Below are positions 24,994 to 53,924 of a stretch of DNA of 64,000 bases, in pieces. A program made the position numbers and the translations under genes. Source of the stretch: a virus (taxonomy: Duplodnaviria; Caudoviricetes); IMG/VR virus record IMGVR_UViG_3300014204_000125, positions 1 to 64,000 of that record. One strand, written 5' to 3'. The stretch's first letter is position 1; each line of letters opens with the position of its first letter. The notes under the pieces were generated by a model. The model saw only the letters and a list, made by a program, of their open reading frames with translations. It had not been told where the DNA came from and did not search any database.

Positions 24994-26093
24994 AGCGCCT
25001 CTATCCTCTGAATTGTTTTCATTACTTCGGTTCCCCCGTGTCCAAATGTCGCGTCAAAATTGGCGAATCCGGATTTGTCCTGATACCTCACCGAATTATA
25101 TCTGTGATCTATCATGGACTTTACGAGTTCGTTTATGTCCGTCTGGATCCAGAGCATAGACTCATTGTAGTTGGGGTTGTGAGGGAATCGACACGCCGGC
25201 TTGAGTTGACTCTTTATGAGCTGACCCGTGCCGGGGAGGATATAATCGACCTGTCCGCCACGATCCGGTGCAATTACGGGGACTCCGCACGCGAGAGCTT
25301 CAAGATAGGGAATCCCACAACCTTCCCCGCGGGTGGGTAAGACATAACAATCCGCGCTCTTATACAGGAACCAAACATCCTCGGCCGGGATTATGTCCGC
25401 GATAAGAAACACGCGCGCCTGAGACTTCTTTTCATACTTAAACATCTCGATCATATTCCGCATTGAGTTGAAATTATCAACCCCGCTGAAACAACATGTC
25501 TTAATGATCAGAGATACGTTCGGATCGTTCTGGAAAGCATGAAAATAGGCTTCCAAAAGAATATCCCAACCCTTCCTTGGGGTCCACTCCGAATTCGCGA
25601 AGAATACGAAGGCGCCGGGATCTTTATGGAACCGGAAAGAATCCGATTTTGAGTTCCGAATCCTTTCAATGTCAATCGGCATAAGGGTAATTTCTACAGG
25701 CACGGAAACCCCGGAATGCACGAACGCCATCTTCGAAAAATAACTCATAGTCCAGACTTCATCGGCTTCGTTACATTTATTAACCCAGGACTCGCTTACC
25801 GAATCCGTCTCCGCGACCGTCATAAGAATATGTTTTGTCTCTCTGGGAAAATAATCCGCTTTACGATCGAAACAAGGCGGGATTACGTTATGAATCACAA
25901 GGTCGTATTCATACCCAACATAACTTTCGAACGGTTTCATTTCGGGCATATCGGGATAATCTTTGGCGCCCTCGTGGACAAGGAATCGGGTTTCCATTCC
26001 CGCCGCATTGAGCCCCTTTATCCACTCACGCGAATTCCTTGCATATCCCGAATTTTCCGTGTATCCGAATATCCAGAGGATCTTTTTCGCCAT
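24990..26093 (-). CDS. Glycosyltransferase, GT4/GT-B
   Basis: SGYAR, ADEVWTMS, RKGWD, TRGEGCGIPYLEALACG. Confidence 0.9.
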   Translation of the reverse strand: MAKKILWIFGYTENSGYARNSREWIKGLNAAGMETRFLVHEGAKDYPDMPEMKPFESYVGYEYDLVIHNVIPPCFDRKADYFPRETKHILMTVAETDSVSESWVNKCNEADEVWTMSYFSKMAFVHSGVSVPVEITLMPIDIERIRNSKSDSFRFHKDPGAFVFFANSEWTPRKGWDILLEAYFHAFQNDPNVSLIIKTCCFSGVDNFNSMRNMIEMFKYEKKSQARVFLIADIIPAEDVWFLYKSADCYVLPTRGEGCGIPYLEALACGVPVIAPDRGGQVDYILPGTGQLIKSQLKPACRFPHNPNYNESMLWIQTDINELVKSMIDHRYNSVRYQDKSGFANFDATFGHGGTEVMKTIQRIEAL

Positions 26094-27319
26094 TAGATTT
26101 CACCCCGATTCGGGAACTCGATCGGGATCGATTGAAACAGCTCCGCCCACTCCCGGGCCACTATATCCCAATCCCTGCGTTTCGCGAAGTCGAGTGCAAA
26201 CATCTTCTGCGTGTCTCTGAATTCAGGCGGGGCTCCCGGTTTCAGTTTCGAATAGAGCTCGAGCATTTTCTCGGCGCCTTTATTCGTATCCGGCAAATAT
26301 CGGATATGCGCGAGATCGTTGTTCCAGTATGTCCTCTGGTTGATCGGGGGTACGAGATGAATGCACTTCATGTCGGCCTGGAGATCTCGCATGACTGAGT
26401 TGTCCGTGACGAGGCTGGGGATCCCGACGGCACATGCGTGGTTAATGGGAAGCCCATAGCCTTCCCCATACGAGAAGAGGCAGTTCACATCGAAACTATT
26501 GTAGAGCTGATTCATCTCGGCGTGGGTGAACGCGCGGTTCGTCGGCCGGATAAACACGACATCCCGATTAGTTTTGTTGAGTCCGAAATGGGTTGCCATT
26601 GTCAGGATATCAAAGCTGTCCGGGGTCAAATGGGCCTCGGTAGTATATACGGCGAGGACTACCTTTTTGCCCTCTTCCTCAGGGAGCATCTTCTTGAATT
26701 TAGCGAATGACTCGACGAGTTCAGGAAATCTTTTTCTCTGAAAATTCTTGCCCACCATTCCGAAAACAAAAACATTGGGATCCTGATAGTACCCGACTTT
26801 TACTTTCGCTTTATCCTCGGGTTTCATTGGAAAATAGAGTTTGTCCACGCCATGCCAAATCACGTTCGATTTGAGATGAGGGTATATTTTTGCAACTTCT
26901 CGCTGTTGCCACGGGGTAGGGAAAACAAGACAGTCGGCATGATTAAGAGAGTCGGCCCAGGGTCCAAGAGGCGCGCCGTCGAATACGACATGCTGCACCC
27001 AGACAGGGCGTTTCTCAGCCTGGAATATCTCGGGCAATTTCTCGACATACATCGGCATTACATACCCGTCGTTCAGAGTATATATGATATCAGGTTTTAT
27101 GTTTTTAATCATGGGTACGAAATCGGCGAGATTGTATGTGCTTCTGCACGCCCAGACAGGGAACCTTGCCGGGAATACCGGCTTGAATCCGTCGTAATTG
27201 CACGCGAGTACGCTTATATCAAAGTTTTCATATATACGATCGAATATACTTTCATTCACATAGCCGTAGCCAGTCGGGACATTGTAATCCCCGACAACAA
27301 GGATTTTACGCTTTGCCAT
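26093..27319 (-). CDS. Glycosyltransferase, GT4/GT-B
   Basis: ILVVGD..VPTGYG, IWHGVD, NFQRKR, GEGYGLP (second Glu of EX7E replaced by His). Confidence 0.9.
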   Translation of the reverse strand: MAKRKILVVGDYNVPTGYGYVNESIFDRIYENFDISVLACNYDGFKPVFPARFPVWACRSTYNLADFVPMIKNIKPDIIYTLNDGYVMPMYVEKLPEIFQAEKRPVWVQHVVFDGAPLGPWADSLNHADCLVFPTPWQQREVAKIYPHLKSNVIWHGVDKLYFPMKPEDKAKVKVGYYQDPNVFVFGMVGKNFQRKRFPELVESFAKFKKMLPEEEGKKVVLAVYTTEAHLTPDSFDILTMATHFGLNKTNRDVVFIRPTNRAFTHAEMNQLYNSFDVNCLFSYGEGYGLPINHACAVGIPSLVTDNSVMRDLQADMKCIHLVPPINQRTYWNNDLAHIRYLPDTNKGAEKMLELYSKLKPGAPPEFRDTQKMFALDFAKRRDWDIVAREWAELFQSIPIEFPNRGEI

Positions 27320-27544: not shown

Positions 27545-27780
27545 CCTGGTTTACCAAATTTGCAAAAAATTAACCTTGCACATTTGGAAGGAGACCTTTC
27601 GTTCTCCTGACGTGAACTTCATTTCTGTTTCACCTGCCTTTGGGTCAGGCTGAATTCCACCGCATAGGCGACCAATTCTCACCTACGACTACCTTCCGGC
27701 TTTGCGACACCGGATTCTGACCTCTTGCCTATTTACATAGGAACCGGGTCAACCGCAGTGAGCGGAGGCTTGAGGTAACA
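27545..27780 (-). ncRNA. Putative omegaRNA/right-end RNA of the TnpB-related element
   Basis: Hairpins CCGG-UGUCGCAAAG-CCGG, CGUAGGUGA..UCGCCUAUG, GCCU..AGGC, GGAGA-ACGAAAGG-UCUCC directly 3' of the ORF. Confidence 0.5.
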
Positions 27781-39821: not shown

Positions 39822-41231
39822 CTAATCGAACTGTTTCAGGAATATCTTAAAATGTTTTTCCACATGAACAAAATGTTCTTTCTCATATCCCGGATAAACC
39901 CCAATCCAGAAAGCTCTGTCCATTGCAATATCGCAAACAGGGAAGGAAACATTATTTATTGCCGCGATACCCGGCATCGTCTTCATAAGGGGTTGCCGCA
40001 TTATGTTGCCGGCGAAGATCATTCGGGTCTGAATGTTCTGTGATTCAAGATATCGAACCAAAGAACTTCGAGAAAATTTAGCGTCCGGCTTCAGAGTCAT
40101 TACAAAACCGAACCATGAAGGCTCTCGCAACTTGCCCAAAACCGTAGTGAACTGGGAATCATCAGGCATATCTATATTTTCGTTGAAGCCCTTAATCTGG
40201 GACAGGGTCATTTTCCACCAATCCCAGTTCTCGTTGCGCGTTTCAATAAACCCGGGCAATTTTTCGAGTTGGGTGCATCCCACCGCGGCTTGAAACTCTG
40301 TCGCCTTTAAATTAAACCCAAATGTTGAGTAAATGTATTTATGGTCATAGCCTTCCGGAATACCTTCGAATTGCTGGTCGAACCTGCTACCACAGCAATT
40401 ATCCTTTCCCGTCGGACACATGCAATCCCGGCCCCAATCCCGAAGGCTCCGAAGCACTTTTGCTATGTCGGGATCGTCGGTGCATACCATACCGCCCTCG
40501 AAGGTAAATAAGTGGTGCGCGGGATAGAATGAAAATGTTGCTATATCCGAGAAATGAGATATATTCCATGTAATCCCATCCTTGGCGCCGAGGGCGTCAC
40601 AGCAATCCGCAATCATCCAGAGGTTATTTTTTTTACACCAATCCTGAACCTTCGAGGCTTCGAATGGGGATCCGAGAACATGCGCCGCAATCACCACTTT
40701 GGCGTCGGGATGCCTTTTGAACGCCTCTTCCAAATTCTTGACTGTAATATTATAGTTTTCCTCTTGGGTCACATCGCAAAAAATAGGGATAAGTCCAAAC
40801 TGGACAAGGGGAGAAACTGTGGTAGGGAAACATAGCGCCGGCGTAATTACCTTGTCTCCCGGTTTCAGAACGGGATACTCGGTTTTATCGGGATCATTCG
40901 CCCAATTCATTAAAGCCGCGACAGCGAGAAGATTCGCGGATGAACCCGAGTTCACGAATATGGCGTGCTTTGACCCCACAAATTTAGCGAATGCGGTTTC
41001 AAATCGATTCGATATTTCACCGTCGGTTCCCCAGAAGTCGCATACGGCTTCGAGTAAAGCAAGCCTTTCTTTCTCGTCGAATACGCGGCCGGCATAAGGC
41101 ACCCGGAAAGGGCGTTGTTTCGCGCAGAGTTCGTCGTACTGTTTTCTCGCCTGATAGAATTGAGACATAAAACCTTGCAGTTTCGAATACAACGAACTGC
41201 ACCAGTGTTCGTTTTTCCACGGCATTCCCAT
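39822..41231 (-). CDS. rfbH: CDP-4-keto-6-deoxyglucose 3-dehydratase (E1)
   Basis: VPYAGRVFD, VNSGSSANLLA, DCCDALG, SFYPAHH (His in place of Lys), WGRDCxC..DNCC Fe-S motif, YDHKYIYS. Confidence 0.93.
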   Translation of the reverse strand: MGMPWKNEHWCSSLYSKLQGFMSQFYQARKQYDELCAKQRPFRVPYAGRVFDEKERLALLEAVCDFWGTDGEISNRFETAFAKFVGSKHAIFVNSGSSANLLAVAALMNWANDPDKTEYPVLKPGDKVITPALCFPTTVSPLVQFGLIPIFCDVTQEENYNITVKNLEEAFKRHPDAKVVIAAHVLGSPFEASKVQDWCKKNNLWMIADCCDALGAKDGITWNISHFSDIATFSFYPAHHLFTFEGGMVCTDDPDIAKVLRSLRDWGRDCMCPTGKDNCCGSRFDQQFEGIPEGYDHKYIYSTFGFNLKATEFQAAVGCTQLEKLPGFIETRNENWDWWKMTLSQIKGFNENIDMPDDSQFTTVLGKLREPSWFGFVMTLKPDAKFSRSSLVRYLESQNIQTRMIFAGNIMRQPLMKTMPGIAAINNVSFPVCDIAMDRAFWIGVYPGYEKEHFVHVEKHFKIFLKQFD

Positions 41232-42014
41232 TTACTCCCACACCTTCCAAGGCGCATTGCCTTCCCGCCACATTTTCTCGAGATCATTTTTATCTTTTAA
41301 AGTATCCATGCTATGCCAGAACCCGTCGTGTTTATACGCAGATACCTTATTGAGCATCGACAATTTCGCAAGCACAACTTCTTCGAAAGAAAAATTTTCG
41401 TAAGGCATATAATCGAAAACCTCGGGATTACATACCATGTATCCCCCGTTAATCCAGTCCTTTTCAGCTTTCGGCTTCTCAACGAAAGACTCGACTTTAC
41501 CAGAGTCGATTCCGAAATGGAGGCACCCGAATCTACCATGCGGCCGAACCGAAGTGAGTGTTACTAATGAGTTTTGATGTTCGTGGTGTCCGATCACTTT
41601 ATTCAAATCAACATCACAAACCCCGTCTCCGTATGTCAAGAAAAAACAATTCGCACCTATTGACTCTATCGCCTTCTTGATTCGAGTTCCAGTAAGAGAG
41701 TTTTCCCCAGTATCGATTAATTCAACAGAGGAAAAAGGAGGAGGCGATTTATATCCGCCATATAAATTACTTCCTCCCGAAGAATATATCGTTACATCCG
41801 AATTATTCCGTTTATAGTTCACGAAATAGTCCCGGATCATTTCGCCCTTGTAGCCCAATAATATCACGAACTCATTGAATCCGAAATGGCTAAAATGCTT
41901 CATGATATGCCAGAGGATAGGTTTGCCGCCTATCTCCACCATCGGCTTCGGGCGAATACTCGTTTCTTCCCCGAGCCGTGTCCCATACCCGCCCGCGAGG
42001 ATTACAACCTTCAT
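41232..42014 (-). CDS. rfbF: Glucose-1-phosphate cytidylyltransferase
   Basis: MKVVILAGGYGTRLGEET..PKPMVEIGG, LTYGDGV, WINGG, HDGFWHSMDT. Confidence 0.95.
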   Translation of the reverse strand: MKVVILAGGYGTRLGEETSIRPKPMVEIGGKPILWHIMKHFSHFGFNEFVILLGYKGEMIRDYFVNYKRNNSDVTIYSSGGSNLYGGYKSPPPFSSVELIDTGENSLTGTRIKKAIESIGANCFFLTYGDGVCDVDLNKVIGHHEHQNSLVTLTSVRPHGRFGCLHFGIDSGKVESFVEKPKAEKDWINGGYMVCNPEVFDYMPYENFSFEEVVLAKLSMLNKVSAYKHDGFWHSMDTLKDKNDLEKMWREGNAPWKVWE

Positions 42015-42226
42015 TTGATTACCTCGCCCTGGGCGTTCAGTTTTATTTTTGAACAAGCCTTGCGAATAGAAGCCGGCATTTTCTTATAGTTCTCTTCGTT
42101 GAACCTGACTTTAAGAACATAAGTCAGGGCTGTCGCGATATCTTTTACCGTCTTCAATTTGCCAAAATTGAGTTCATATCTGATTTCGGGTCCAATTTTA
42201 ATGTTACCTATTTCTTTCTTTTTCAT
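42011..42226 (-). CDS. Small basic hypothetical protein
   Basis: 71 aa, coupled to its neighbours. Confidence 0.55.
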   Translation of the reverse strand: MKKKEIGNIKIGPEIRYELNFGKLKTVKDIATALTYVLKVRFNEENYKKMPASIRKACSKIKLNAQGEVIK

Positions 42227-43238
42227 AATTTATCGTCCTTTCAAATCCTTCGAGATACCCCACCTGGGGCTCCCAGCCGAGTTCGCGTTGTATCTTCGAA
42301 CAATCCGGCACGAAATACAAACGAGAATTCGACATTGTTTTTATTTTTTTATTCACTACATTTAATTCGTACTTTGTTGCGATCGATGTAGCAAGCCTCT
42401 GCATCGTAACAGCCGCGCTCGAGTTCCCCACGTTATAGACTGCGGGCTCCCCGGGGGCTGCGAGCAATCTTAAAAATGCAATCGTAGCGTCTCTTAAATA
42501 AAGAAAGGCCCGGGTAGAACATCCGTCGCTATTGAGAACTATATCTCTTTTATTTACCGCCGCCCAGACGAGTTCAGAAAATATTCTGTGATCTTTTTCG
42601 GAAACCCCGGGACCGTAGGTGTGAAATAGCCGAGCAATCTTACAGGGGAATCCAGAGGAAAAGATCATCTGCTCCGCCATTCTTTTGCTTTCGGGATACG
42701 CCGATCTCGCCGCGGCGCAATCGAGCCCGCCGAAATCAGTCTCGTTTGTAAGACAATCCCCTTGTGGCCCTGCCCCATATATTTCCCCAGCGCTTAGAAA
42801 TAAGATGTTCTTTACATTGGGTGTCGCATATTTCAATATTTTGAGAGTGCCTTCAATATTCGGGCGCCATACATTCGCCGCTTTTTTAAAATCAGTCGGC
42901 TTCGCCGGCGATGCGCCATGAATAATATAATCGCAACCAGAAGCGACAATGTCGGACTCGTCTATGTTTTCAACTTTCTTGAAAACGGGTCTAAGTTTCA
43001 TTCCCGGCTGTGGTCTGAACTCATCCACATATTTTATTCTGTCTCGAACCGTCAGAGTCAATAAAGTCTGTAAATCCGGGGTCAAGGTTTCATTCCTATA
43101 AAGAATAAATTTAACGAGATAGGACAAGACAAGCCCGGTCCCGCCCGTTATAAAGACCGACTTCCTATTAAGGAAATTCAACCGCTCGCCTTCCTGTTTT
43201 ATAATTAAATCAAAGTCTTCTTTTAAAATGCTATTCAT
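42204..43238 (-). CDS. NAD-dependent epimerase/dehydratase/reductase (extended SDR)
   Basis: ITGGTGLV, IIHGASPA, YPESK, ARLFHTYGPG. Confidence 0.9.
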   Translation of the reverse strand: MNSILKEDFDLIIKQEGERLNFLNRKSVFITGGTGLVLSYLVKFILYRNETLTPDLQTLLTLTVRDRIKYVDEFRPQPGMKLRPVFKKVENIDESDIVASGCDYIIHGASPAKPTDFKKAANVWRPNIEGTLKILKYATPNVKNILFLSAGEIYGAGPQGDCLTNETDFGGLDCAAARSAYPESKRMAEQMIFSSGFPCKIARLFHTYGPGVSEKDHRIFSELVWAAVNKRDIVLNSDGCSTRAFLYLRDATIAFLRLLAAPGEPAVYNVGNSSAAVTMQRLATSIATKYELNVVNKKIKTMSNSRLYFVPDCSKIQRELGWEPQVGYLEGFERTINYEKERNR

Positions 43239-44154
43239 TTATAAGTCCTTTAACCCTTTCAAGTCCGAGATGTTTTTCTTTATGAAGAAAAATGAAATTG
43301 GTGTTTTCAGTTTGCTCGGTTATCCAATCTATCTGAACCAGTTTCCCGGCTTCTATTATATAACAATTATACCCCAAATCAAAGAAAAAAGATAAAATAC
43401 CGTTATAATGATATCCGAACTTGGCCGTCCACTTACGGAGGATTTCAGTAAACACCATCGGGAGATCGCGCGCAATAGTTTTTTCTCCACCCTTGAATAC
43501 ATTGAGTTCGGCGCCCTCGACATCGCACTTAATAAAATCAACTCTGTACTTATGCGTTTTTACGAACTCGTCCATTTTTCTTACTTTACAGTGTTCAATT
43601 TTCTTGGGAATATCAACTCCAAGATCTTGACTCGAAGCGTTACCCGACCATTCCGGCGAATAATAAAAAGGGATACTTTTATTTTGATCCGATAACCCGC
43701 AATTAAATACCTTGGCGCAACTCCCGTTTAATTTAACATTATAATTGAGCTGAGTGAACGTATTGCAAATAGGTTCAAACGCAACGATCTTCCATTTCTC
43801 TTTTGCCTTATCAACATTAAGGCTGTACCAGCCGATGTTGGCCCCGATGTCAAAGAATGTACCCGAATCCCCAATAAGCGCAAGGATCATGTCAAGTTCG
43901 GCTTCCTCGTAGGTTCCGAAATTAAATATCTCGAGAGGTATTATTCTTTTATCCTCGATATTTACTACCATCCTAACTCTGTTTTTTCTCGAAGTAAAAA
44001 CGACCTCGCCGGCGCTGATATCAATATGAGATATCCCGACATGCCCGAGTTCCTCTGCATATCTGAAAAGAATCCGATGATATTCTTGCATCCTATTAAT
44101 AAACTCGCGTTTATCTATCTGCCCCAGATAGTGTTGATTCTTTATATCTTGCAT
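43231..44154 (-). CDS. FkbM-family methyltransferase
   Basis: FDIGANIGWY, AFEP, DFIKCDVEGAE; start refined to the TGATG overlap. Confidence 0.9.
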   Translation of the reverse strand: MQDIKNQHYLGQIDKREFINRMQEYHRILFRYAEELGHVGISHIDISAGEVVFTSRKNRVRMVVNIEDKRIIPLEIFNFGTYEEAELDMILALIGDSGTFFDIGANIGWYSLNVDKAKEKWKIVAFEPICNTFTQLNYNVKLNGSCAKVFNCGLSDQNKSIPFYYSPEWSGNASSQDLGVDIPKKIEHCKVRKMDEFVKTHKYRVDFIKCDVEGAELNVFKGGEKTIARDLPMVFTEILRKWTAKFGYHYNGILSFFFDLGYNCYIIEAGKLVQIDWITEQTENTNFIFLHKEKHLGLERVKGLINE

Positions 44155-45020
44155 CAAAATCCCTTTATCTTTGAAATAAGAACCAAATATTGATCTTGGC
44201 ATATTATATCATGTTTTAACAACAATGAAAAGCACATCAAGGCTTGCGTAGGCGCGATATTTATTTTCCACTCATTCGAAGCATCCGCAGCACTGCCGGC
44301 CCACCAACCCGTCATGAGTTCTCTAAAGAGTTCTGGCTTCAAATTTCGGCACGCGCAGACGAATCCGTATAAGGAATACACATACCCGTTGGGGGTAAAG
44401 ATCGGGGCCGCCTGTTTCTGAATAAAGTAATCCAAATTTTCGAGACAATATGTCTGAACACATTTATCTTTCGCTGATTCAAATATCATTGAGAGTTGGG
44501 CGAAGCGAGTAAAAAGGTTATCGAAAAAAACAGGAGCATGTTTTAAATAGTGTCTTGAATATATGACATTACTTATTTTACCTAAACCAAAATTTAAAAA
44601 CCTAACGAATTCATCCTGAGTCCAGCCTTGTTTTTCCGAATGCTGTGGTAACAAAGTCACTGGGAAATAAATCAAATTTTCCTGAAGATGTATAGGGAGA
44701 TCCTTGAGATAGGCAAGAACTTTTTTAACCGCTCCGGGTTTCAGTGTATCATCATCGCTCAAAAGCCAAAAATAAATCCCAATATCTTGAGCGAAAGCAC
44801 CCGAGTAATTACCTTCCGCGCCGATGTTCTCGGAATGATCAATATACTTAATCGGATATAATCCTCTTGCGAAGTCTTTGGGAGAGCCGTTATTGGAAAC
44901 GATAACTTCCAAGAGATCCCTTTCGGTTTCATCGAGCCCCCAAAAGATAGACTCGATCTGTTTCCACAAAAGATCTCCCCTGTTATATGTTGGGATATAA
45001 ATCGTGAGAAGTTTATTCAT
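44154..45020 (-). CDS. Glycosyltransferase family 2
   Basis: LTIYIPTYNR, ENIGAEGN, WLLSDDD. Confidence 0.9.
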   Translation of the reverse strand: MNKLLTIYIPTYNRGDLLWKQIESIFWGLDETERDLLEVIVSNNGSPKDFARGLYPIKYIDHSENIGAEGNYSGAFAQDIGIYFWLLSDDDTLKPGAVKKVLAYLKDLPIHLQENLIYFPVTLLPQHSEKQGWTQDEFVRFLNFGLGKISNVIYSRHYLKHAPVFFDNLFTRFAQLSMIFESAKDKCVQTYCLENLDYFIQKQAAPIFTPNGYVYSLYGFVCACRNLKPELFRELMTGWWAGSAADASNEWKINIAPTQALMCFSLLLKHDIICQDQYLVLISKIKGF

Positions 45021-46832
45021 AATTCCAATCCTTTATGTACATCTCACGCTTAATATCTATCTTGGGGGTCATGTCTTCGAGGGGCGGGGATACCATTGTC
45101 CCGTCCGGACGTTTACTCGAAACCGTCTTGGGCCAGAATTTCTGTTCCGGATTCATTTTGATTTCGATAAGCATCGGCCCCGGCGCCGCGAATATTCTCG
45201 GGAAAGCCTTTATCAAATCGCCTTCGTTATCGAAACAATCGTACTGCATATCGAACGCCATAGAGACCCAATCCAGACGAGGCAGAGTGAGCCCACTCTT
45301 CTTATCGCACCCCACCCTATGTCCGTTGAAATAAAGATCCTGGGTATGCTTTATACTGAGATAACCCTGATTATTGAAAACGAAAAGTTTTAAAGGAATT
45401 TTGTGGAACTTGACGGTTTGGAGTTCCTGCAAATTCAACATAAGCCCGCCGTCCCCGTGTACGCACACGAGATTTTTTCTCGAACCGTTTCTTCCGAAAT
45501 GTGCCCCGATCGCCGCGGGGAGCCCATAGCCCATTGGCGAGAACCCGCCGTTGGTAAATATATGCTGATCCTTTTTTACTTGGAAAGTGACGTTGTATCC
45601 ATAGAAAGCGGCGCCCTGATCCGTTACCATTATGTCCCCGGGAGCCATTGCCTGAGAAAGCGAATGGTAAAACGAATACGAATTAATAAACCCGTCTTCG
45701 TGATGAACGTAGGGGTCATACTCTTTGAGAGGAGCGAATTTTAATGAGCCCCGCCAGTCTTGAATTTTCTTTAGCCATGATTTTCTCTCGCGAGCGCAAA
45801 TAGGAAACACCAAGTCTTTAACCCTGTCGAAAAACATATTGAGATCGGACAGAATAATGTATTCAGGTTTGAATTTCTTGAAATTTTCATTCAAGACATG
45901 GGGATCCGCATCTACGATCGCGATCTTCGCGTTTCTTCCGAACGCTTTAAAATTATATCCCGTTGTGGGCTGGGACAGGCGCGCGCCCAAGACAAGGATA
46001 AAGTCTGCATTCTGCACCGCGATATTCCCGCAACGCTGTCCGTTTACCCCAATCCGGCCGGCAAGGAGAGGGTTATATTCTGTAATCAAATCAAATCCAA
46101 GCTTTGTTGTAACTATAGGAATCTGAAAGAGTTCAGCGTAATGCAGTGCTTTCACTTGAGTTCCTGAAAGTTTAACTCCATGACCTAAAACTATAATCGG
46201 GCGTTTCGCCTCCGCAAGCCCTTTTGTAATAAGTTTCGGATTATCCAACTGGGCTTTCATTTCGGAAACCGACATCAACCAATCCCGTTTTAATTCAACC
46301 CCGGACAAGGATATATCTTTGCTCTGAATATCAATCGGGATATCACAACCCATACCGGGCCGGGGCGTCCCGTAGTCGCCTTGTCATACGCGATCTGCAT
46401 TATGGTTTCAATTTCATTTGCATCCCGGACTGTAATTGCATATTTCGTTATTGGCGCCACCAGACTCGTAATATTGACTTCATGCACCCCGCGCTGTCGC
46501 AGTCCCGTCTGATCAATAAGCCATTGCGAATTCGACTGCCCGGAAATAATTATCATCGGGATTGAGTCGTTCCATGCACACGCAACCCCAGTGATCGCGT
46601 TTGTAGCTGCGGGGCCCGTGGTTACGAGCGCGCACCCGAGTCGATTGGAAATACGCTGATACCCTTCCGCGGCCATTACCGCGGCTTGTTCGTGGTGGCA
46701 GCATATATGTTCGAGTTGAGGATGATTGCCCAAGGAATCGATTAAGTGCATCCCGCCGCCGCCGGCTACCATGAATACTTTTTCGCATCCCCGTTTCGCG
46801 ATGAAGTCAATTACATAATCTGAAAGTTTCAA
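45013..46832 (-). pseudogene. ThDP-dependent acetolactate-synthase-like enzyme (YerE-like), frameshifted near 46345
   Basis: The N-terminal ORF (HHEQAA, TTGP, PGPVWV) and C-terminal ORF (DIPIDIQ, MGYGLPAAIGA, GDGG..NN) join if 2 nt are removed from GTT GT GAT. Confidence 0.88.
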
Positions 46833-47551
46833 ATGCCCATCTCCTTAATCCGATTCTCCTGCATCCCCAGAAGCATATCTGAATCCACCCCAATACAAAA
46901 CACATTAACCCCGCACTCGAAAAGAATTACCTTCTCTCGGAGCGATGTAGCCATAGCAATTAAAGGTATTTTCAAACCCCGACATAACAACCCGATTTCG
47001 TATAAGAACTTGAGAGACTGTGCAGAATAAAGTTCTTTTTCTCCCAGATCGATCATCATATCGTAGGCCCCATAGTAAATAAAATCGCTATCTTCGACTA
47101 TGCCTTGAAAATTAGCAAAACCCAAGGCGCTTTCGATAATTGAACCCACAAGGTTCGGAGAGTTACCTTCTGATTTCACATAAGAATTGCCCGGACAATA
47201 CGGCGAATAACTCCGAGTCCCGTTCGGGGGATAATTCGCATAGTTTCTTATTTTTTGAATCGTTTTCCTCGACTCAACACCTGAAACGAGAAGTCCGGAC
47301 GCACCAGAGTCAAAAATATTACAAACAAGGCTCCCCGAAACATCCGCGGGAACCCGAACAAAAGCATTCGTCTTTTCGTCTATCTCTGAAACCAAATGTC
47401 CTATCTCGTTATACGAAATCCTGCCGTGTTCCCCGTCTATCAGAAGAAAATCCATTTGGTTCCGCGGAGTCTTCGAAAGAATACGGCCGGATTCGGCGTG
47501 GGTGATCCACATTGTTTTTCCAGGATTCTTTTGATTAAACACGCGGTACAT
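46829..47551 (-). CDS. HpcH/HpaI-family aldolase
   Basis: DFLLIDGEHG, VRVP, YPPNGTRSYSP, IIES, YGAYD. Confidence 0.85.
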   Translation of the reverse strand: MYRVFNQKNPGKTMWITHAESGRILSKTPRNQMDFLLIDGEHGRISYNEIGHLVSEIDEKTNAFVRVPADVSGSLVCNIFDSGASGLLVSGVESRKTIQKIRNYANYPPNGTRSYSPYCPGNSYVKSEGNSPNLVGSIIESALGFANFQGIVEDSDFIYYGAYDMMIDLGEKELYSAQSLKFLYEIGLLCRGLKIPLIAMATSLREKVILFECGVNVFCIGVDSDMLLGMQENRIKEMGI

Positions 47552-48521
47552 CCTTTATCAACTCGCTTATTTTATCCTCGTCATAATTTACAGGGAGTTC
47601 TTTCTGAACCCGGAAAAGAATCTCTTCCCGCCAGATTTCGTCCACATTATTATCGTCTAAGTAGTCCGCATAATAAGGATGGACCCCGGCGATCCCGGCT
47701 TCTAAAGTGTTTGTATTGTATCCCCAATAAAAATCTTCTTTCATCCTATAAAAATGAGAATTGATAAGTTTAAGATAAGGAACATCCCAATATTTATTAA
47801 TGCCTTCCCTGCGAAGATGTCGTATTAAAAGTTCTATAGGAAGATTGCCTCCCCCACGACCCATCCCATAAACAGAGGCATCTATGCCATAGGGGGATTC
47901 AGTTTTCAATAACTTGAGGACATTCGCGAATGCAAGTTGGGTATTATTGTGAGCGTGGAAATTAACCCTTGAAAACCCGAGATCCCGGAGTTTCAAATAA
48001 CAATACAGAACTTCTTCGGGAAGCATTGATCCAAAACTGTCCGCGAAAGTAATCGCTTCTATGCTATCTTTGAAATCCTGAGTGAGCCGGCTGAGATATT
48101 TGAGATCGGAGTTCTGGAAACGGCAGAAACCCATAAGACTTAAAAAGACCTTGTAGCCTCTCAGAATAAGTCCTGGGATAAGGTTCAAAGCGATATCGAT
48201 ATTATGAGAATACGTCGCGAGCCTAATATATTTAAACTGGCTGTTTTCAGCCTTTGTCCAGTCTATTTCCGTATTGCGATCGCAGTCTATCATTCCGATT
48301 ATTTTACACTTTTGAGTCTCAATATCTTCGAGTCCGTGATTTCCATTTAACTTCATTTTACCATAAAAACCACGATCCAGTTTGTTCGAAATATATCCGA
48401 GTTCAAAAAAATCTACCCCAGCCTGAGTCGCGGCGTGGTATGTTTTACGGACGAGTTCATCAGAGAATTCCCAATTATTCGTGTGACCCCCATCTCGAAT
48501 TGTGCAATCGGTGATTATCAT
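47535..48521 (-). CDS. HMGL-like (DRE-TIM) aldolase
   Basis: DCTIRDGG, ADSFGSM, FHAHNN, GMGRGGGN. Confidence 0.88.
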   Translation of the reverse strand: MIITDCTIRDGGHTNNWEFSDELVRKTYHAATQAGVDFFELGYISNKLDRGFYGKMKLNGNHGLEDIETQKCKIIGMIDCDRNTEIDWTKAENSQFKYIRLATYSHNIDIALNLIPGLILRGYKVFLSLMGFCRFQNSDLKYLSRLTQDFKDSIEAITFADSFGSMLPEEVLYCYLKLRDLGFSRVNFHAHNNTQLAFANVLKLLKTESPYGIDASVYGMGRGGGNLPIELLIRHLRREGINKYWDVPYLKLINSHFYRMKEDFYWGYNTNTLEAGIAGVHPYYADYLDDNNVDEIWREEILFRVQKELPVNYDEDKISELIKDVPRV

Positions 48522-49297
48522 TTCGAAACCTCAATCTTTAACTCGGAAAGACTTGAAACGATCCCGTGACAGTACGGGACAAGATGGCTTGCCGGAGTGT
48601 TGCCTGTGGTAACTCCAAGGCATTTACCCCGAAAACTCATTCCTATTTTCATATCGCCGCAAGTATCCCCAATAAAGAGGCAGTTTTCTGGTTTAATATT
48701 TTCTTTTGTAAGAAAATTCAAAGATAAGATTTGTTTGGATATTTTCTCTGGGCCTACTCCGTAAGAGACAGAATAGTGCTCTCCGAAATCGAAAATATGC
48801 CGGCACGCTTCCGTATTTCTGACATCATCCATAGATATTATTGCAATAGGAATCAGCGCATCTTTCGAAATCTTTTTCAGTCTATTCGCAAATAACCTGG
48901 CGCCAGGAACGGGCTGAATTATTTTCTTAAAATCAGCCGAAGATAAAGAAGAATGGACATATTTGAAAATCCTGTCTATTTCGTAATATGAAGCGCTATA
49001 TCCGCGTTTACAAAGACTAAGAATAACGCTCGCAATAACTGCTTCCCTACTATATCTTCCCACCGGGCCGTCTTCGAATAAAACGTCACGAACCGTATTA
49101 AGTCCCATCGAGGTGCAGGTGATTTTTTTTTCGATATTGGCCTTTAATCCGATATCATATATTTTATGAATCTCTTCCGCGCGGCGCCGGATAATTGCGC
49201 CCCAATAAATGTCGGAGTCGATAAGAGTTCCGTCTTTATCGAATATAATGGCTTCAATATTTTTGAAAACATATTTCCCGGCTTTTATATCGATCAT
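48518..49297 (-). CDS. HAD-family hydrolase/phosphatase
   Basis: IFDKDGTL, FIGDTCGD, GVTTG. Confidence 0.88.
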   Translation of the reverse strand: MIDIKAGKYVFKNIEAIIFDKDGTLIDSDIYWGAIIRRRAEEIHKIYDIGLKANIEKKITCTSMGLNTVRDVLFEDGPVGRYSREAVIASVILSLCKRGYSASYYEIDRIFKYVHSSLSSADFKKIIQPVPGARLFANRLKKISKDALIPIAIISMDDVRNTEACRHIFDFGEHYSVSYGVGPEKISKQILSLNFLTKENIKPENCLFIGDTCGDMKIGMSFRGKCLGVTTGNTPASHLVPYCHGIVSSLSELKIEVSK

Positions 49298-49305
49298 TTC
49301 ATCTC

Positions 49306-50325
49306 CTATATACTCGCCACGAGTGGGCGAACTTTATTTACGACTTCATCGAATATTTCTCTCTGATTATACAGGTCTTCGTATCTTAAATCAAGATGTT
49401 CTTTAAAATACTTTTGCACGAGATGGCGCGCATAAGATCCGACCGAGACCCCGTGATAATTTATACCCATCATCCGCGCAAGCCAGCCCGTTCTTGCGTT
49501 GGTGCCGCCCGAAAGGAGTAAATACGCCTTGGCGTTCATGCGATCGAATAATTGCGCGCTCGCGAGAGCCTGAAGAGTTGTAGATTCATCATTGTCGCAA
49601 CCACTCATAGGATTCCCGTCAGCCTGAATTATTGTTGACCAATCCTCCCGGCCTTTCAATGCTTTCGAAATACGATCGACAAAATCGAGATCTCCGGAGT
49701 GCTTCCGGTCTATGCAATAACTCAACATGCCTCCCGGGAATAAACTTTGAAGTTCATTCCAACCCTGTATTACTTCGTCTGTCTTGGGCGATACGGCATG
49801 ATACTCGATCGAATCGATCCCCATCTCAACAAGCGGCGGGATTATCTCGGAAAACTTTCGGGTGGAGTAATGCGCGATCAGAGCGTTACTTTTACAGACT
49901 TCATGACATTTTCCACAGCCGATACACTTATGGTCTGAGACATCGAGAGGGCAGTTAAATAAATTATTAAATCGATACCCTATTGCTTCCTGAGGGCATA
50001 CTTTTACGCACTCTTTACAGTCCGAACACAGGGTATGGTCAATCGCGAACTTGCGAACATGGGGATCCCCTTTGATCCCGACGCTGACATTTATGAAACT
50101 CATATAGTCTGAAATATTCGCAAAACGTAATCCCGCCTTAGTCGCCTCAACGACTTCCGGATATGCAGCAACATCGAAATATCGTACCCCTGCAATAGCG
50201 TATATTGCAGTCATAACCTTGACTTCTTCCAAATTAGAATTACCCGCACCACATACAAGTTTAAAAACCTTACCCTGCTTAAAATGTTTCTGGAGTTCCA
50301 CCTTAGAGCGCGAAGCGTTAAACAT
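49306..50325 (-). CDS. LdpA-like 2x[4Fe-4S] protein
   Basis: FKLVCGAGN, GDPHVRK, CSDCKECVKVCP, CIGCGKCHEVC, QADGNPMSG, LSGGTN. Confidence 0.8.
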   Translation of the reverse strand: MFNASRSKVELQKHFKQGKVFKLVCGAGNSNLEEVKVMTAIYAIAGVRYFDVAAYPEVVEATKAGLRFANISDYMSFINVSVGIKGDPHVRKFAIDHTLCSDCKECVKVCPQEAIGYRFNNLFNCPLDVSDHKCIGCGKCHEVCKSNALIAHYSTRKFSEIIPPLVEMGIDSIEYHAVSPKTDEVIQGWNELQSLFPGGMLSYCIDRKHSGDLDFVDRISKALKGREDWSTIIQADGNPMSGCDNDESTTLQALASAQLFDRMNAKAYLLLSGGTNARTGWLARMMGINYHGVSVGSYARHLVQKYFKEHLDLRYEDLYNQREIFDEVVNKVRPLVASI

Positions 50326-51475
50326 CTATAAACTCCTTTATCTGTTTCTGGGTTAATTTCAAAGCGGCGTCCGGGCTTTTCTTGTACGCTTTTACCCATG
50401 TCACGAACATCTCAAGAGCCATATCAAGTTTTATTCTGGGGCGCCAACCAAGAACTCTCTTGGCCTTTGTACTGTCGATATCTAAGAAAGAAGTGTCGCT
50501 GGTCGGATGCGATTCATAATGAGAATAATGAAACCACTTCTTGTTCTTCAAAATAACGCTTAATTTATCCGCTATTTCTCCGATAGTCGTGCAATCTTCA
50601 GTGTCGGGGCCGAAGTTAAATTCTTTCCACCATCCCAAGGGGTCTCCATATTGAGAAAAACTGTCCATACAATGTTTTAAATGCTCAGAAAAATTTTCGT
50701 TATAGAGTTCTTCAGCAACAAAAAGATATCCTTCAAGCGCGGATAAAACGTGTTGCCACGGACGCACGGAAAAAAGCGATTTGAACTCTACTACTTTGTT
50801 CGATATCAAACCTTTCATCATATCCGCGAAAAGTCTGTTCTGCGCCCAGTCTCCGCCGCCGAATACATTGCCAGCGCGCACGGAACTCAAGTGATTATTT
50901 AACCCGGTCATTGTGCCATAACTTTTATTCAAAATTTCACAACACGCCTTGCTCGCGTCGTAGGGTTTATAAGGCACCATTGAATCCCTTTCACGCCGAC
51001 GCTCCCAAGGTCTTGAATCAAAGTTATCGTACACTTTATCTGTCGTAATCATTACGGCCGCAAAATGAGAACATTCGCCGGGGCCTTTGCGATACTGGGC
51101 CAGAGCATCGAGTAAATTCAAATTTGCCATGATATTATTTTCAAAAGTAAAATGCGGATTCTCCCAAGCCGCGGATACAATGGGCTGTGCCGCGAGATGA
51201 ATCACCACATCGGGCTTCCATCTATTTAATAGTCCCAAGATATCTTTCGGGCAACTTTGGCTTAAATTATATCCGTAAAAATGTTCCTGAATACAATTTA
51301 CTATGTCAAGGGATTGAAACATATTAGGAGCAGAAGGGAATTCATTCGACATCCCATATATCTTCGCGCCCAACTCGTGAAGCATCAGGCACAGCCAGGA
51401 GCCCTTGAATCCGGTATGCCCCGTTACCAATATCCGTTTGCCCTTCCAAAACTTTCTGTCTAATTGCCTCCCCAT
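50318..51475 (-). CDS. rfbG: CDP-glucose 4,6-dehydratase
   Basis: FWKGKRILVTGHTGFKGSWL, HLAAQP, TTDKVY, RAGNVFGGGDW, RPWQHVL. Confidence 0.95.
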   Translation of the reverse strand: MGRQLDRKFWKGKRILVTGHTGFKGSWLCLMLHELGAKIYGMSNEFPSAPNMFQSLDIVNCIQEHFYGYNLSQSCPKDILGLLNRWKPDVVIHLAAQPIVSAAWENPHFTFENNIMANLNLLDALAQYRKGPGECSHFAAVMITTDKVYDNFDSRPWERRRERDSMVPYKPYDASKACCEILNKSYGTMTGLNNHLSSVRAGNVFGGGDWAQNRLFADMMKGLISNKVVEFKSLFSVRPWQHVLSALEGYLFVAEELYNENFSEHLKHCMDSFSQYGDPLGWWKEFNFGPDTEDCTTIGEIADKLSVILKNKKWFHYSHYESHPTSDTSFLDIDSTKAKRVLGWRPRIKLDMALEMFVTWVKAYKKSPDAALKLTQKQIKEFIDV

Positions 51476-52416
51476 AACTCACACTCCCTCGCTATTGTAT
51501 TCACCCAATTCTCCGCCGAGAATATTTTACCCCGCCCCGCGACCCATTCGAATATCGCATCTATTTTCCTGTTGTATTCGTCATTACTCATAAACGCTAA
51601 ATCGGAAACCACATCGTCTACACTGAATTTATTTAAGTCGATAAAACATTCTTTCGGAATATAATCTAACACATCCGGGGCGCCTTTGTAAAGCGGAATT
51701 GTAAGGGACAAAAGACAGTCGATTATCTTCTCGGAAATATAGCCGGGACAAATGCAATTTTCATAAGCGAGCGCAAATCTGTATTTTGAAAGGACATCAA
51801 TTTTTCTTTCCACGGGGCCTTGGTAAAAAGGAAAGTTTTCCTTTTCCCATCCCTGTCCGTATAAATGAAATTTATTGTAATTATTGCCAAGCCAAAATAT
51901 ATCCTGCATCCTCTTGGTGTAAAGAGTTGGGAATAAAGACGAATCGTTTTGTTTATTCCCGAAAATAGCGCACATAAAACGAGTCTTACGGATCGCGTTA
52001 AATTTCTCCGTTATTCTCCATTTATTAGGCAAAAAGACTTGAACCCCATTGGGAATTTTCTTTAAAATATCAGTGCGATATGTAAATACTTTTTCGAACC
52101 ACTCGTGATGAAGTTCTCCAATATTATGCGTATAACCATTCCATATCGGGGATTCAAATGTAAGAAGAAACTTGCGAGCCCTCATAGGATATCTGATTGC
52201 GCTATCCCCGGACCTGGCATCACTTAAAAATAAAACGTCAACTTCGTCGGGATGTGAATAGCGATCTAAAGTGTCGCATCTATGACCCATTGAATTTGCC
52301 ATTTCTTTAAATAATATTAGAGGATATAAAAGAGAATCTCCTATGGAAACATTTTCGTTTTCAAACATTCTATTGTTGTTGAAATAAGCATCCGCACAGT
52401 GAAATGCAATATTCAT
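51460..52416 (-). CDS. Glycosyltransferase family 10 (fucosyltransferase-like)
   Basis: YRFALAYEN...GYISEKI...IPLYKGAP..IPKECFID. Confidence 0.85.
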   Translation of the reverse strand: MNIAFHCADAYFNNNRMFENENVSIGDSLLYPLILFKEMANSMGHRCDTLDRYSHPDEVDVLFLSDARSGDSAIRYPMRARKFLLTFESPIWNGYTHNIGELHHEWFEKVFTYRTDILKKIPNGVQVFLPNKWRITEKFNAIRKTRFMCAIFGNKQNDSSLFPTLYTKRMQDIFWLGNNYNKFHLYGQGWEKENFPFYQGPVERKIDVLSKYRFALAYENCICPGYISEKIIDCLLSLTIPLYKGAPDVLDYIPKECFIDLNKFSVDDVVSDLAFMSNDEYNRKIDAIFEWVAGRGKIFSAENWVNTIARECELWGGN

Positions 52417-53193
52417 TTATATATCCCCCGAATAGCCAGTGCGCCATTTATCCGCGTACGCATCGAGTCCAGGGCATAGCGTGATCCCGGCGATAAAAGT
52501 TAATAAGTCGGCTTGAATATTCAAAAGTTCTGGCATTGTAATCGGAACTGCAAAGGTAGGACGATTCGGCTGACAGTCAACTAATCGGATCTGTCCGTTT
52601 GTCCATACTTGTTCGTATTCAGAAGCCGAAGCGAGCCCAACCGCAAGCGTGTAGCCTATCATATATCTTAAATGCGACTGGCTCTCTGCAAAGCCGATAT
52701 TAAAAAGAGATCTTTTAAATATTAATCCAGAAATCCAAGTGCAATGCGTGACAAGGTATTTAGGGCAACTCAAAGATTTTAGTTTAATAAACTCCTGATA
52801 ATTCGCGTATCTTTTTTCTTCCATATCGTGATGAGGCAGAATCATCAGCCCATAAACCCCATCCCTTAAATGTTGATATAAGTTTTGAATTAAACTTCCA
52901 ACAATGATATCGTCATCGCCGAGAAGCCAAACATAATCTCCCTTGGCCCATTTGACGCACTCGATATAGTTCTTTTCCGCACCAATGTTTTCCCCGTTAT
53001 ATTTATAGACAATCCCATACTGGAGTGCCGTTTTTATATTGGCCTCCCGAACTTCAAGTTTATCCGAATTATCCGAAATTAATATTTCGTTACCCTCGAG
53101 TTGCCAGCCCGGGAGCGCGCGCATGAGAGATTCCACGCACACCCTTAAATTAGCCGGCCGGTTATATGTCGGAATACAAATACTTAAAAGCAT
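52417..53193 (-). CDS. Glycosyltransferase family 2
   Basis: LSICIPTYNR, ISDN, ENIGAEKN, WLLGDDD. Confidence 0.9.
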   Translation of the reverse strand: MLLSICIPTYNRPANLRVCVESLMRALPGWQLEGNEILISDNSDKLEVREANIKTALQYGIVYKYNGENIGAEKNYIECVKWAKGDYVWLLGDDDIIVGSLIQNLYQHLRDGVYGLMILPHHDMEEKRYANYQEFIKLKSLSCPKYLVTHCTWISGLIFKRSLFNIGFAESQSHLRYMIGYTLAVGLASASEYEQVWTNGQIRLVDCQPNRPTFAVPITMPELLNIQADLLTFIAGITLCPGLDAYADKWRTGYSGDI

Positions 53194-53924
53194 CCCAGCT
53201 CCCTCCATTCAGCAATGTTTATCTGGAGTTTTTGAAGAAGCGGATTCAGCCGCGGGAGTTCGGAACCGTAGAGGTGGGCTTCTTTTCTATGCGACTGTTT
53301 GGGGTGGTATCGGTACTGGACAAGGCATTCCGGGACATTTGACATTACTACATCTTTCTCGATGGCGAGCCGCAGCCAGAGTTCGAGATCAAGCGCGACC
53401 CGATAGGATCCATTAAAAATGAAACCACGATCCACGAGCCGTTTGTTTAACATCATGGAGGGACACCCAAACGGGCACTGGCCCTGGGATAATAAGGTTT
53501 TTATCATTGAGTTTTCTTGTGGGTATTTCCATTCACCCTCAAGCCCCTGGAACAATTTCAAGAATGTACCGCAAACATCGATCTTCATTTCTTCCATGTA
53601 AAAATATTGCTTCGAAAGTCTATCCGGTGCCGAGATATCGTCCCCGTGCGCCATCGCGATATACTTCCCCTGCGCGTCGTGCATCATGATATTCGTGCGA
53701 TCCGCGACATTAATGGAATCCTCGGGGGTGTCCATTGGTATCACGCGGTTATCCCGCATCGCCCACTCAAGAATCGTCTTCTGCGAACCATCCTCGGATC
53801 CTCCGTCAAAGATCAATAATTCGATATTATTAAGAGACTGGTTCAGAATCGATTCGATCGCAGGACTCAGGTATTCCCCTGAATTCAATACGGGCATAAC
53901 GACGGATACCAATGGATTATTCAT
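53184..53924 (-). CDS. Glycosyltransferase family 2
   Basis: VSVVMPV, DGGSEDGS, GKYIAMAHGDD, DLELWLR. Confidence 0.9.
   Translation of the reverse strand: MNNPLVSVVMPVLNSGEYLSPAIESILNQSLNNIELLIFDGGSEDGSQKTILEWAMRDNRVIPMDTPEDSINVADRTNIMMHDAQGKYIAMAHGDDISAPDRLSKQYFYMEEMKIDVCGTFLKLFQGLEGEWKYPQENSMIKTLLSQGQCPFGCPSMMLNKRLVDRGFIFNGSYRVALDLELWLRLAIEKDVVMSNVPECLVQYRYHPKQSHRKEAHLYGSELPRLNPLLQKLQINIAEWRELGCF

Follow-up and report, generated by a model that had tools for sequence, protein, structure and literature searches.

A phage gene block resembling bacterial acyl-branched sugar pathways carries a frameshifted ThDP carboligase gene

Gene content of the block

We analysed the first 64,000 nucleotides (the window) of the IMG/VR virus record IMGVR_UViG_3300014204_000125, a complete phage genome of 115,335 bp with direct terminal repeats, and in it a block of sugar-related genes at positions 39822-53924. 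The block comprised 16 densely packed open reading frames (ORFs), all on the minus strand. We read it, with moderate confidence, as a phage-borne version of the bacterial pathways for acyl-branched sugars of the yersiniose, erwiniose and caryophyllose kind, whose chemistry is already known, in which the gene for the branching enzyme, a thiamine diphosphate (ThDP)-dependent carboligase, is broken by a frameshift. A first-pass annotation made from the sequence had listed 15 co-oriented genes; the common orientation and all gene families that it named were recovered with Pfam and NCBIfam models at the expected positions, and the count became 16 because the ThDP enzyme occupies two ORFs.

The block is phage-encoded, as had been proposed. 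The complete record carries a tape-measure protein gene (12202-17523, PF10145) on the same minus strand, and terminase-like (35191-36966) and sliding-clamp-like (36966-38123) genes, also on that strand; the block adjoins the terminase and structural genes and shares their orientation. A GGAG-type Shine-Dalgarno (SD) sequence precedes most block genes. GC content and codon use agreed with the rest of the phage (cosine 0.97), so the block is not a fresh capture.

The DNA was obtained from a landfill metagenome, and identical fragments occurred in a groundwater study. Wastewater runs contained a relative of the phage with about 92% identity. Among the 40 listed differences from this relative, 33 were synonymous third-position changes, and the differences were spread across the ThDP, HpcH, HMGL and LdpA-like genes, which indicates that the module has been under strong purifying selection until very recently, as far as these substitutions can tell. 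No close relative of the phage was found among 50,697 deposited phage genomes, and megablast of the 14 kb block against the same number of phage records gave zero matches.

Genes for the CDP-linked acceptor

Three genes correspond to the synthesis of a cytidine diphosphate (CDP)-linked 4-keto-3,6-dideoxyhexose, as the first-pass annotation had recognized; each product passed a curated cut-off. RfbG, CDP-glucose 4,6-dehydratase (50318..51475, minus strand), scored 313.3 bits against the TIGR02622 equivalog cut-off of 278.45, and RfbF, glucose-1-phosphate cytidylyltransferase (41232..42014, minus strand), scored 318.9 bits against 300.25 for TIGR02623. The rfbF start is most likely the ATG at 42014, as the TIGR02623 match opens at residue 15 of the TTG-started ORF. 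This ATG overlaps, as ATGA, the stop codon of a Lys-rich ORF of 71 amino acids (42011..42226, minus strand) that has an AAGGA SD, is translationally coupled to rfbF and matched no family in Pfam or NCBIfam.

RfbH, the CDP-6-deoxy-L-threo-D-glycero-4-hexulose 3-dehydrase (E1; 39822..41231, minus strand), scored 492.3 bits against the NF011936 cut-off of 423. The hallmarks of E1 are a His in place of the pyridoxal phosphate (PLP) lysine and a Cys motif for a [2Fe-2S] cluster. In the phage protein His replaces the PLP lysine (SFYPAHH), and a C-X58-C-X-C-X7-C motif is present (Cys 210/211...270, 272, 279/280).

A frameshifted ThDP carboligase gene

The first-pass annotation had treated the ThDP enzyme as one gene, which was not borne out. 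The first of its two ORFs (46290..46832, minus strand) starts at a TTG with an AAGGAG SD and encodes the N-terminal PYR domain (PF02776, E 9.6e-35). Its 180 amino acids consist of 159 native residues and a 21-residue out-of-frame tail; the catalytic Glu of the HEQ motif is kept, and identity to the intact proteins of viral contig L082 and of the Elusimicrobiales metagenome-assembled genome (MAG) L002 is 60%. The second ORF (45013..46353, minus strand; 446 amino acids) encodes the middle and PP domains (PF00205, PF02775) of a YerE/JanthE-like enzyme with an intact GDG-X24-NN motif (GDGGLML...FNN). Its opening ATG, at 46353, has no SD.

At the junction the minus strand reads GTA TGG GTT GTG ATA TCC. 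It has TGTG at 46344-46347 where homologues imply TG, a +2 insertion by TG duplication within the GRPGPVWV|DIP motif that the first-pass annotation had missed. Four close homologues, from L002, L082, the viral contig L083 and the Arcobacteraceae locus L080, are single ORFs of 574–601 amino acids and align at this site as GRPGPVWVDIP(L/I)D(V/I)Q. The first phage ORF reads GRPGPVWV and then loses frame, and the second picks up at DIPIDIQ, with no native residue lost; both halves are otherwise free of stops. Instead of the single polypeptide of about 570–620 amino acids that would be expected, the phage gene thus gives ORFs of 180 and 446 amino acids.

In Logan, the source run had been assembled independently, with an identical result across the whole 14.8 kb, frameshift included, which rules out an artefact of the assembler. 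The groundwater run probably carries it too, judging from bin depth and from the lack of any indel call there. A search of 5.8 billion proteins found no intact near-identical allele, and an exact-pattern search for the junction with 0–3 bases at the insertion site gave zero matches in IMG/VR or JGI contigs. Programmed frameshifting was rejected, as the site has no slippery heptamer or homopolymer. Because the homologues are all intact and the second fragment lacks an SD, the lesion is probably a recent inactivating mutation that leaves the branching step dead or impaired in this genome.

The lesion could also be the first sign that the whole cluster is being lost as cargo from this lineage, with the branched sugar no longer made. 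The insertion in an otherwise conserved motif, the downstream fragment without SD behind a site without slippery heptamer, the failure to find an intact near-identical allele in the protein and contig searches, and the groundwater contigs of another study, identical where shown and with no indel reported at the site, are all consistent with such decay. However, the other 14 genes are open with their catalytic motifs kept, neither ThDP half has further stops, the differences from the wastewater relative are mostly synonymous, and the composition has ameliorated to that of the phage; moreover, a single lesion may be very recent or confined to a subpopulation. We regard decay of the cluster as doubtful.

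A functional split enzyme is a still less probable account. It would require that the PYR fragment and the middle/PP fragment, translated from the ATG at 46353, associate into an active carboligase. ThDP enzymes that are naturally split are known (ComD/ComE, for example), the interruption lies where the PYR and middle domains meet, with all native residues kept, and an in-frame ATG lies exactly at the junction. That ATG, however, has no SD, unlike most genes of the cluster, the first fragment ends in the out-of-frame tail, and the listed homologues other than the window's own fragment all appear as a single chain (119 proteins from the protein search, together with 36 viral loci), with L123 as a possible exception. 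At L123:10001-11720, N- and C-terminal ThDP matches lie in different frames with a gap of about 70 nucleotides, possibly another frameshifted or interrupted viral copy.

The best PDB match of the C-terminal fragment was 8rph, JanthE (E 8e-77, residues 5-432), and the best acetohydroxyacid synthase (AHAS) match reached 1.1e-37. Identity to JanthE was about 45%, estimated by eye from the alignment, and PpYerE (5ahk) was no nearer to the phage enzyme than AHAS (E 1e-33 versus 1e-37). JanthE (PDB 8rph/8rpi/8rpj) is a YerE-like carboligase of Janthinobacterium that forms tertiary alcohols from ketones and longer 2-oxo-acid donors. It shares its domain order with the phage enzyme and is the best solved relative. 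In contrast, the ThDP-binding motif of JanthE is CDG and that of the phage enzyme the canonical GDG.

The donor module

Four genes directly upstream of the ThDP gene form a module with two aldolases. In the LdpA-like protein (49306..50325, minus strand), a 2x[4Fe-4S] ferredoxin domain is inserted into a TIM barrel (PF12617, Fer4 families, DUF561). The NF045992 score of this protein (152.9 bits) is far under the cut-off of 450, which excludes it as an LdpA orthologue; it shares the fold and Fe-S insert of cyanobacterial LdpA and belongs to a paralogous group that occurs in glycan loci. Eight of its Cys are invariant, and it has an SGGTN loop of the phosphate type. In an AlphaFold2 model (pLDDT 85), aldolase-like, phosphate-binding TIM barrels matched at Z 15-17, all tied.

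The next gene encodes a HAD-family phosphatase of 259 amino acids (48518..49297, minus strand; PF00702, E 1.8e-12); in several related module-bearing loci, too, the HAD gene adjoins the LdpA-like or HMGL-like gene. It is followed by the gene for an HMGL-like class II pyruvate aldolase of the BphI/DmpG/ErwI type (47535..48521, minus strand; 328 amino acids; PF00682). This protein matched the 4-hydroxy-2-oxovalerate aldolase subfamily NF006049 under its cut-off (E 6e-28) and scored 79 bits against the TIGR03217 equivalog cut-off of 286, which places it in a distinct subfamily and not among the 4-hydroxy-2-oxovalerate aldolase equivalogs. Its best PDB match was 3dxi, a "putative aldolase". DCTIRDGGH, HAHNN and HPYY were invariant in 16 homologues; by the roles assigned in DmpG/BphI, we take DCTIRDGGH, HxH and the Tyr to be the catalytic Arg/Asp/His, the metal ligands and the C-terminal Tyr.

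The second aldolase is an HpcH/HpaI-family pyruvate aldolase of the MMAR_2331 type (46829..47551, minus strand; 240 amino acids; PF03328, E 2.7e-14), which matched HpcH/HpaI aldolases and YfaU in PDB. The VRVP Arg and Glu/Asp ligand motifs are discernible in the sequence alone, read without a reference alignment. An in-frame 3-nucleotide deletion at 47369-47371, in contigs of two groundwater runs, is a natural length variant of this gene.

With the HMGL-like protein we recovered 80 bacterial and 11 viral related loci, which were compared by tblastn. An LdpA-like gene lay within 10 kb in 18 of 90 related loci (HMGL query), including all with a fuller module. The order LdpA-like–HAD–HMGL–HpcH–ThDP–SDR, which ends in a short-chain dehydrogenase/reductase (SDR), recurs in L082 and L002, with variants in L083 and L080. 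In L082, rfbF and rfbH lie directly upstream of the module and an FkbM remnant lies downstream, and in L002 the module is flanked by Wzy_C, Wza and Wzc within a surface-polysaccharide locus. ThDP and HMGL homologues were often found on contigs of equal size, which suggests that they share contigs.

Four Deltaproteobacteria loci carry LdpA–HAD–HMGL–HpcH without the ThDP enzyme. In L016, the annotated one of the four, a CTP_transf_3 cytidylyltransferase gene comes after the module, which adjoins a Wzx-like flippase. By analogy, its logic would be that of ulosonic-acid synthesis, dephosphorylation and activation with cytidine monophosphate (CMP). These gene contexts suggest that the module produces a hydroxylated 2-oxo acid, probably via a phosphorylated intermediate. 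Two natural fusions, of HpcH with the ThDP enzyme (P0131, 742 amino acids) and of a NeuB-type synthase with the ThDP enzyme (P0001, 1154 amino acids), are Rosetta-stone hints that ulosonic-type acids may be the donors for this ThDP clade.

In KDO (3-deoxy-D-manno-octulosonic acid) and nonulosonic-acid pathways the sequence of synthase, phosphatase and CMP activation is common with L016. The synthase of L016, however, is a class II pyruvate aldolase and not a phosphoenolpyruvate-condensing enzyme of the NeuB/KdsA type, and the acid of the phage would not be CMP-activated: by context it would be passed to the ThDP enzyme.

Around half of the listed HMGL-like homologues are fusions of about 570 amino acids with PF01973 (MptE/Maf-like), for example P0044 of Clostridium botulinum. 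These fusions link the HMGL-like subfamily to glycosylation islands of the flagellin type, in which proteins are likewise glycosylated in the cytoplasm.

Predicted pathway and comparison with known systems

Based on these genes, RfbF, RfbG and RfbH would convert glucose 1-phosphate and CTP to CDP-4-keto-3,6-dideoxyglucose, as equivalog-level homology predicts. In parallel, the LdpA-like, HAD, HMGL and HpcH proteins would join pyruvate to an aldehyde, which probably carries a phosphate at the outset, to give a hydroxylated 2-oxo acid; for this step we rely on the chemistry of the families, on conserved synteny and on the published scheme. The YerE/JanthE-like ThDP enzyme would decarboxylate the 2-oxo acid and place the acyl group on C4, the neighbouring SDR would reduce the side-chain ketone, and the FkbM protein may O-methylate the product. 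The soluble GT2 and GT10 glycosyltransferases (GTs), together with three GT4 enzymes of the head-tail operon, would then assemble the glycan in the cytoplasm.

The biosynthetic logic of acyl-branched sugars was resolved only in 2022 (PMC9306805). In the scheme of Steitz et al., the acceptor of erwiniose, caryophyllose and gastriose is CDP-4-keto-3,6-dideoxyglucose, and a pyruvate aldolase supplies a 4-hydroxy-2-oxo acid as the donor; this aldolase is of the BphI/HMGL type in the case of ErwI (with ErwJ) and of the HpcH/citrate-lyase type in that of MMAR_2331. ErwE, MMAR_2332 or MyGE couples the two, a YerF-like reductase follows, and the R. palustris cluster also has an S-adenosylmethionine (SAM) methyltransferase (PMC9306805). 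The first-pass annotation had read RfbF/G/H, a YerE-like ThDP enzyme and a reductase as yersiniose logic, a reading that our analysis supports. Its further idea, that the aldolases supply a longer 2-oxo-acid donor, agrees with this unifying scheme, with the conserved gene order and with the P0131 fusion, and is a rediscovery of published chemistry applied to a phage.

The phage block shares with the erwiniose, caryophyllose and gastriose clusters (ErwE-ErwF-ErwI-ErwJ; MMAR_2331-2333; MyGE-MygF-MygI) the CDP-4-keto-3,6-dideoxyglucose genes, a YerE-like carboligase, an adjacent candidate NAD(P)H reductase and pyruvate aldolases, and with the R. palustris cluster a SAM methyltransferase. Unlike them, it is carried by a phage, has both aldolase types together, has LdpA-like and HAD proteins instead of an ErwJ-type acetaldehyde dehydrogenase, lacks E3 and has a frameshifted ThDP gene; the phage enzyme was set beside ErwE and MMAR_2332 by their published description. 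Compared with yersiniose A of Yersinia pseudotuberculosis (DdhA-D, YerE, YerF), RfbF/G/H (DdhA/B/C), C4 branching by a ThDP enzyme and subsequent ketoreduction are common. YerE, however, takes only pyruvate, which gives a C2 branch, whereas the 2-oxo-acid module of the phage implies a longer branch.

Several points weigh against this pathway reading. With the ThDP gene broken, the phage may make a plain 3,6-dideoxyhexose only, or nothing; the gene set for the branched-sugar product proposed earlier is present, but the genome as sequenced may not make that product. The donor acid and the length of the branch are deduced from the genes and their context, as are the functions given to the SDR and FkbM proteins. 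No E3 reductase (AscD/RfbI-type) for RfbH was detected, PF00175 being absent from the complete genome (control positive in 11 of 14 genomes), which leaves a host reductase or the LdpA-like protein as its possible substitute. The LdpA-like protein is disfavoured in this role, as across loci it tracks the HMGL aldolase and not RfbH. Foldseek and VIA-align gave generic TIM-barrel matches with tied scores, from which no function could be assigned to the LdpA-like protein. An acylating aldehyde dehydrogenase of the BphJ/ErwJ type, which would supply the aldehyde, was likewise missing (PF09290 absent from the genome). Finally, the native use of the closest bacterial module, that of L002, is in surface polysaccharide. 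Taken apart from the state of the ThDP gene, we consider the identity of the pathway quite probable from its gene content.

Tailoring genes and glycosyltransferases

The extended SDR (42204..43238, minus strand; 344 amino acids; PF01370, E 3.2e-28) is a candidate side-chain ketoreductase. In L002 and L082 an SDR lies directly downstream of the ThDP gene (31–35% identity), and by position we assign to the phage SDR the candidate role of YerF/ErwF. The FkbM-family SAM methyltransferase (43231..44202, minus strand; 323 amino acids) scored 99.5 bits against the TIGR01444 cut-off of 37.7, and in L082 and L094, both viral, an FkbM gene again comes after that for the SDR. At L082:15790-17090 the FkbM gene is a C-terminal remnant followed by a GIY-YIG/NUMOD3 homing endonuclease, and this arrangement suggests that the methyltransferase may have been disrupted by a mobile endonuclease.

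The first gene of the block encodes a GT2 of 246 amino acids (53184..53924, minus strand; PF00535, E 6.7e-22) with an AGAGG SD upstream and no transmembrane-like segment. Two further GT2 proteins, of 263 (52417..53208, minus strand; PF00535, E 2.7e-17) and 288 amino acids (44154..45020, minus strand; PF00535, E 6.1e-12), and a GT10-like protein of the fucosyltransferase fold (51460..52416, minus strand; 318 amino acids; PF00852, E 2e-14) complete the set in the block. Three tandem GT4 genes (23746..27319, minus strand; PF00534, PF13692; phrog_2170 glycosyltransferase) lie within the head-tail block, between the portal/terminase side and the tape-measure side. The earlier count of seven GTs is therefore correct, and the complex glycan shield that it was taken to imply is conjecture only.

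Candidate acceptors of the sugar

Our best guess, held tentatively, is that the acceptors are virion proteins of this phage, which has no integrase. It draws on absences across the genome, on the GT4 trio in the head-tail block, on a precedent in mycobacteriophages and on the Maf/MptE-like fusions. In the complete genome we found no initiating or phosphoglycosyl transferase (PF02397, PF00953), no tyrosine or serine recombinase (PF00589, PF00239), no ORF with more than two hydrophobic segments, no membrane-anchored GT and no Gtr-like protein. The window had been described as free of flippase, polymerase, ligase and initiating transferase, and this holds beyond the window for the whole genome. 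The block does not resemble an O-antigen or serotype-converting cassette either, as there is no integrase and no Gtr/Wzy/Oac-like membrane component.

For virion glycosylation, GTs would be expected among structural genes, and the GT4 trio at 23746-27319 lies there. In the mycobacteriophages Che8 and Rita, phage GTs glycosylate capsid and tail proteins (Freeman et al. 2023, as cited in PMC11256854). The GT genes are associated with structural genes, as here, and the glycans are added in the cytoplasm. Unlike the phage described here, the mycobacteriophages use host nucleotide sugars and few GTs; this phage would bring a multi-step nucleotide-sugar pathway of its own.

A 1492-residue tail protein in the window (2778-7256) contains the tripeptide NSG 12 times against 0.65 expected; it was the top-enriched tripeptide, and none of 300 shuffles reached this number. 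The contexts are aromatic-rich, for example TNSG(I/V/S). The tripeptide may mark sites of glycosylation, or it may simply reflect a beta-turn that is conserved among repeated beta-rich domains.

Remodelling of the host envelope ranks second, as an unlikely though substantial alternative. Soluble phage enzymes would act on undecaprenyl-linked host intermediates at the cytoplasmic face, and the host Wzx/Wzy or ABC machinery would export the modified polysaccharide, for example to block superinfection or the adsorption of progeny to lysing cells. The known acyl-branched sugars are all on lipopolysaccharide (LPS), lipooligosaccharide (LOS) or O-antigen (PMC9306805), the L002 module is flanked by Wzy_C, Wza and Wzc, the Deltaproteobacteria copy in L016 adjoins a Wzx-like flippase, and export genes need not be phage-borne. 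On the other hand, the lack of integrase and resolvase means no lysogenic conversion, membrane-anchored GTs and Gtr-like proteins are absent, and the block adjoins and shares the orientation of the terminase and structural genes, with three GTs inside the head-tail operon. The first-pass annotation had argued from missing export genes for a cytoplasmic acceptor, virion protein or DNA, over O-antigen conversion: the absence was confirmed, the DNA part was not, and a host-glycan target stays in consideration since the L002 module lies in a Wzy/Wza/Wzc locus.

DNA ranks far below both. Its hypermodification would have the GTs put the rare sugar on hydroxymethylated bases of phage DNA, which we consider very improbable. 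The enzymes of the block are cytoplasmic and soluble, and GT-built glycans on phage DNA are documented in two reports (bioRxiv 10.1101/2023.12.21.572611, PMC13326640). However, no thymidylate-synthase/dCMP-hydroxymethylase homologue and no C5-cytosine methyltransferase was found in the complete genome (controls positive), so the check for a hydroxymethylase that had been proposed with the DNA hypothesis was negative. A Tet/JBP search of the complete genome gave zero matches, with a control that was positive in no genome.

Occurrence in other viruses and significance

A search of cultured phages by tblastn with the ThDP fragment gave only matches of at most 30% identity, to ilvB-like genes that in many cases came from contaminated records, and no close relative emerged when IMG/VR and JGI metagenomes were scanned with single proteins. 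By these searches, no cultured phage appears to have a YerE-like ThDP enzyme of this kind. A profile of intact enzymes, in turn, recovered 37 IMG/VR loci (on at least 36 contigs) with YerE/JanthE-like genes at 36–45% identity. Within 10 kb of these 37 loci, RfbH-like genes occurred in 24, 4,6-dehydratase-like genes in 18 and GT10-like genes in nine. A ThDP gene beside genes for CDP-4-keto-3,6-dideoxyhexose and a reductase was found in the phage block, L082, L080 and L103; in L103, rfbF, rfbG, the ThDP gene and rfbH are consecutive. The cluster search suggested with the first-pass annotation thus came out empty for cultured phages and positive for the module in viral and bacterial loci (L082, L002; variants L083, L080). 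A terminase search in the two further module-bearing viral contigs, which are 41% and 29% complete, found none in these fragments.

Giant-virus MAG contigs (L087-L092, IMG/VR GVMAG) contain a ThDP enzyme at 34% and an HMGL-like aldolase at 26–28% identity. Most of them also have an RfbH-like gene (31%), and L089 and L092 add 4,6-dehydratase-like SDRs. The branched-sugar logic may thus also occur in nucleocytoplasmic large DNA viruses, as far as such sequence matches indicate.

To our knowledge, yersiniose, erwiniose, caryophyllose and other acyl-branched sugars have been described only in bacterial LPS/LOS and some antibiotics. With the whole logic of their synthesis present in a virulent-type phage, and YerE-like genes in dozens of contigs from uncultivated viruses, its range now includes viruses. 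A literature search found no published description of viral YerE-like enzymes, and a 2025 review of these enzymes names viruses only as an unexplored source. New here are the pathway in a phage, a donor module unlike the published ones and the presence of YerE-like genes across viral contigs. The size of the block suggests that some phages devote about 12% of their genome to an exotic glycan.

The LdpA-like/HAD/aldolase module is a lead on an unassigned protein family and on new biocatalysts for tertiary-alcohol and 2-oxo-acid chemistry. More speculatively, LdpA-like/HAD/HMGL/HpcH could be an uncharacterised, widespread module for an ulosonic-type acid that is either CMP-activated or fed to a YerE-like enzyme, and phages could coat their virions with higher-carbon acyl-branched sugars. 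If true, the LdpA family would gain its first enzymatic role, and an acyl-branched sugar would for the first time be described on a virus particle. The frameshift calls for caution: the present copy is unsuited to expression as it stands, and the intact orthologues of L082 and L002 are preferable.

Other features of the genome

Promoter and terminator scans gave matches at chance level only, and ARAGORN found no tRNA or transfer-messenger RNA genes in the window. No RNA dataset was listed with this stretch; wastewater runs with an uncertain RNA-Seq label hold fragments of the relative only. Within the structural block, two TnpB/IS605 OrfB-like ORFs were present at 20416-21189 and 27733-28914 of the window. 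One of the pair has an HTH_OrfB_IS605 and a partial OrfB_IS605 domain, and the other has a weak phrog transposase match.

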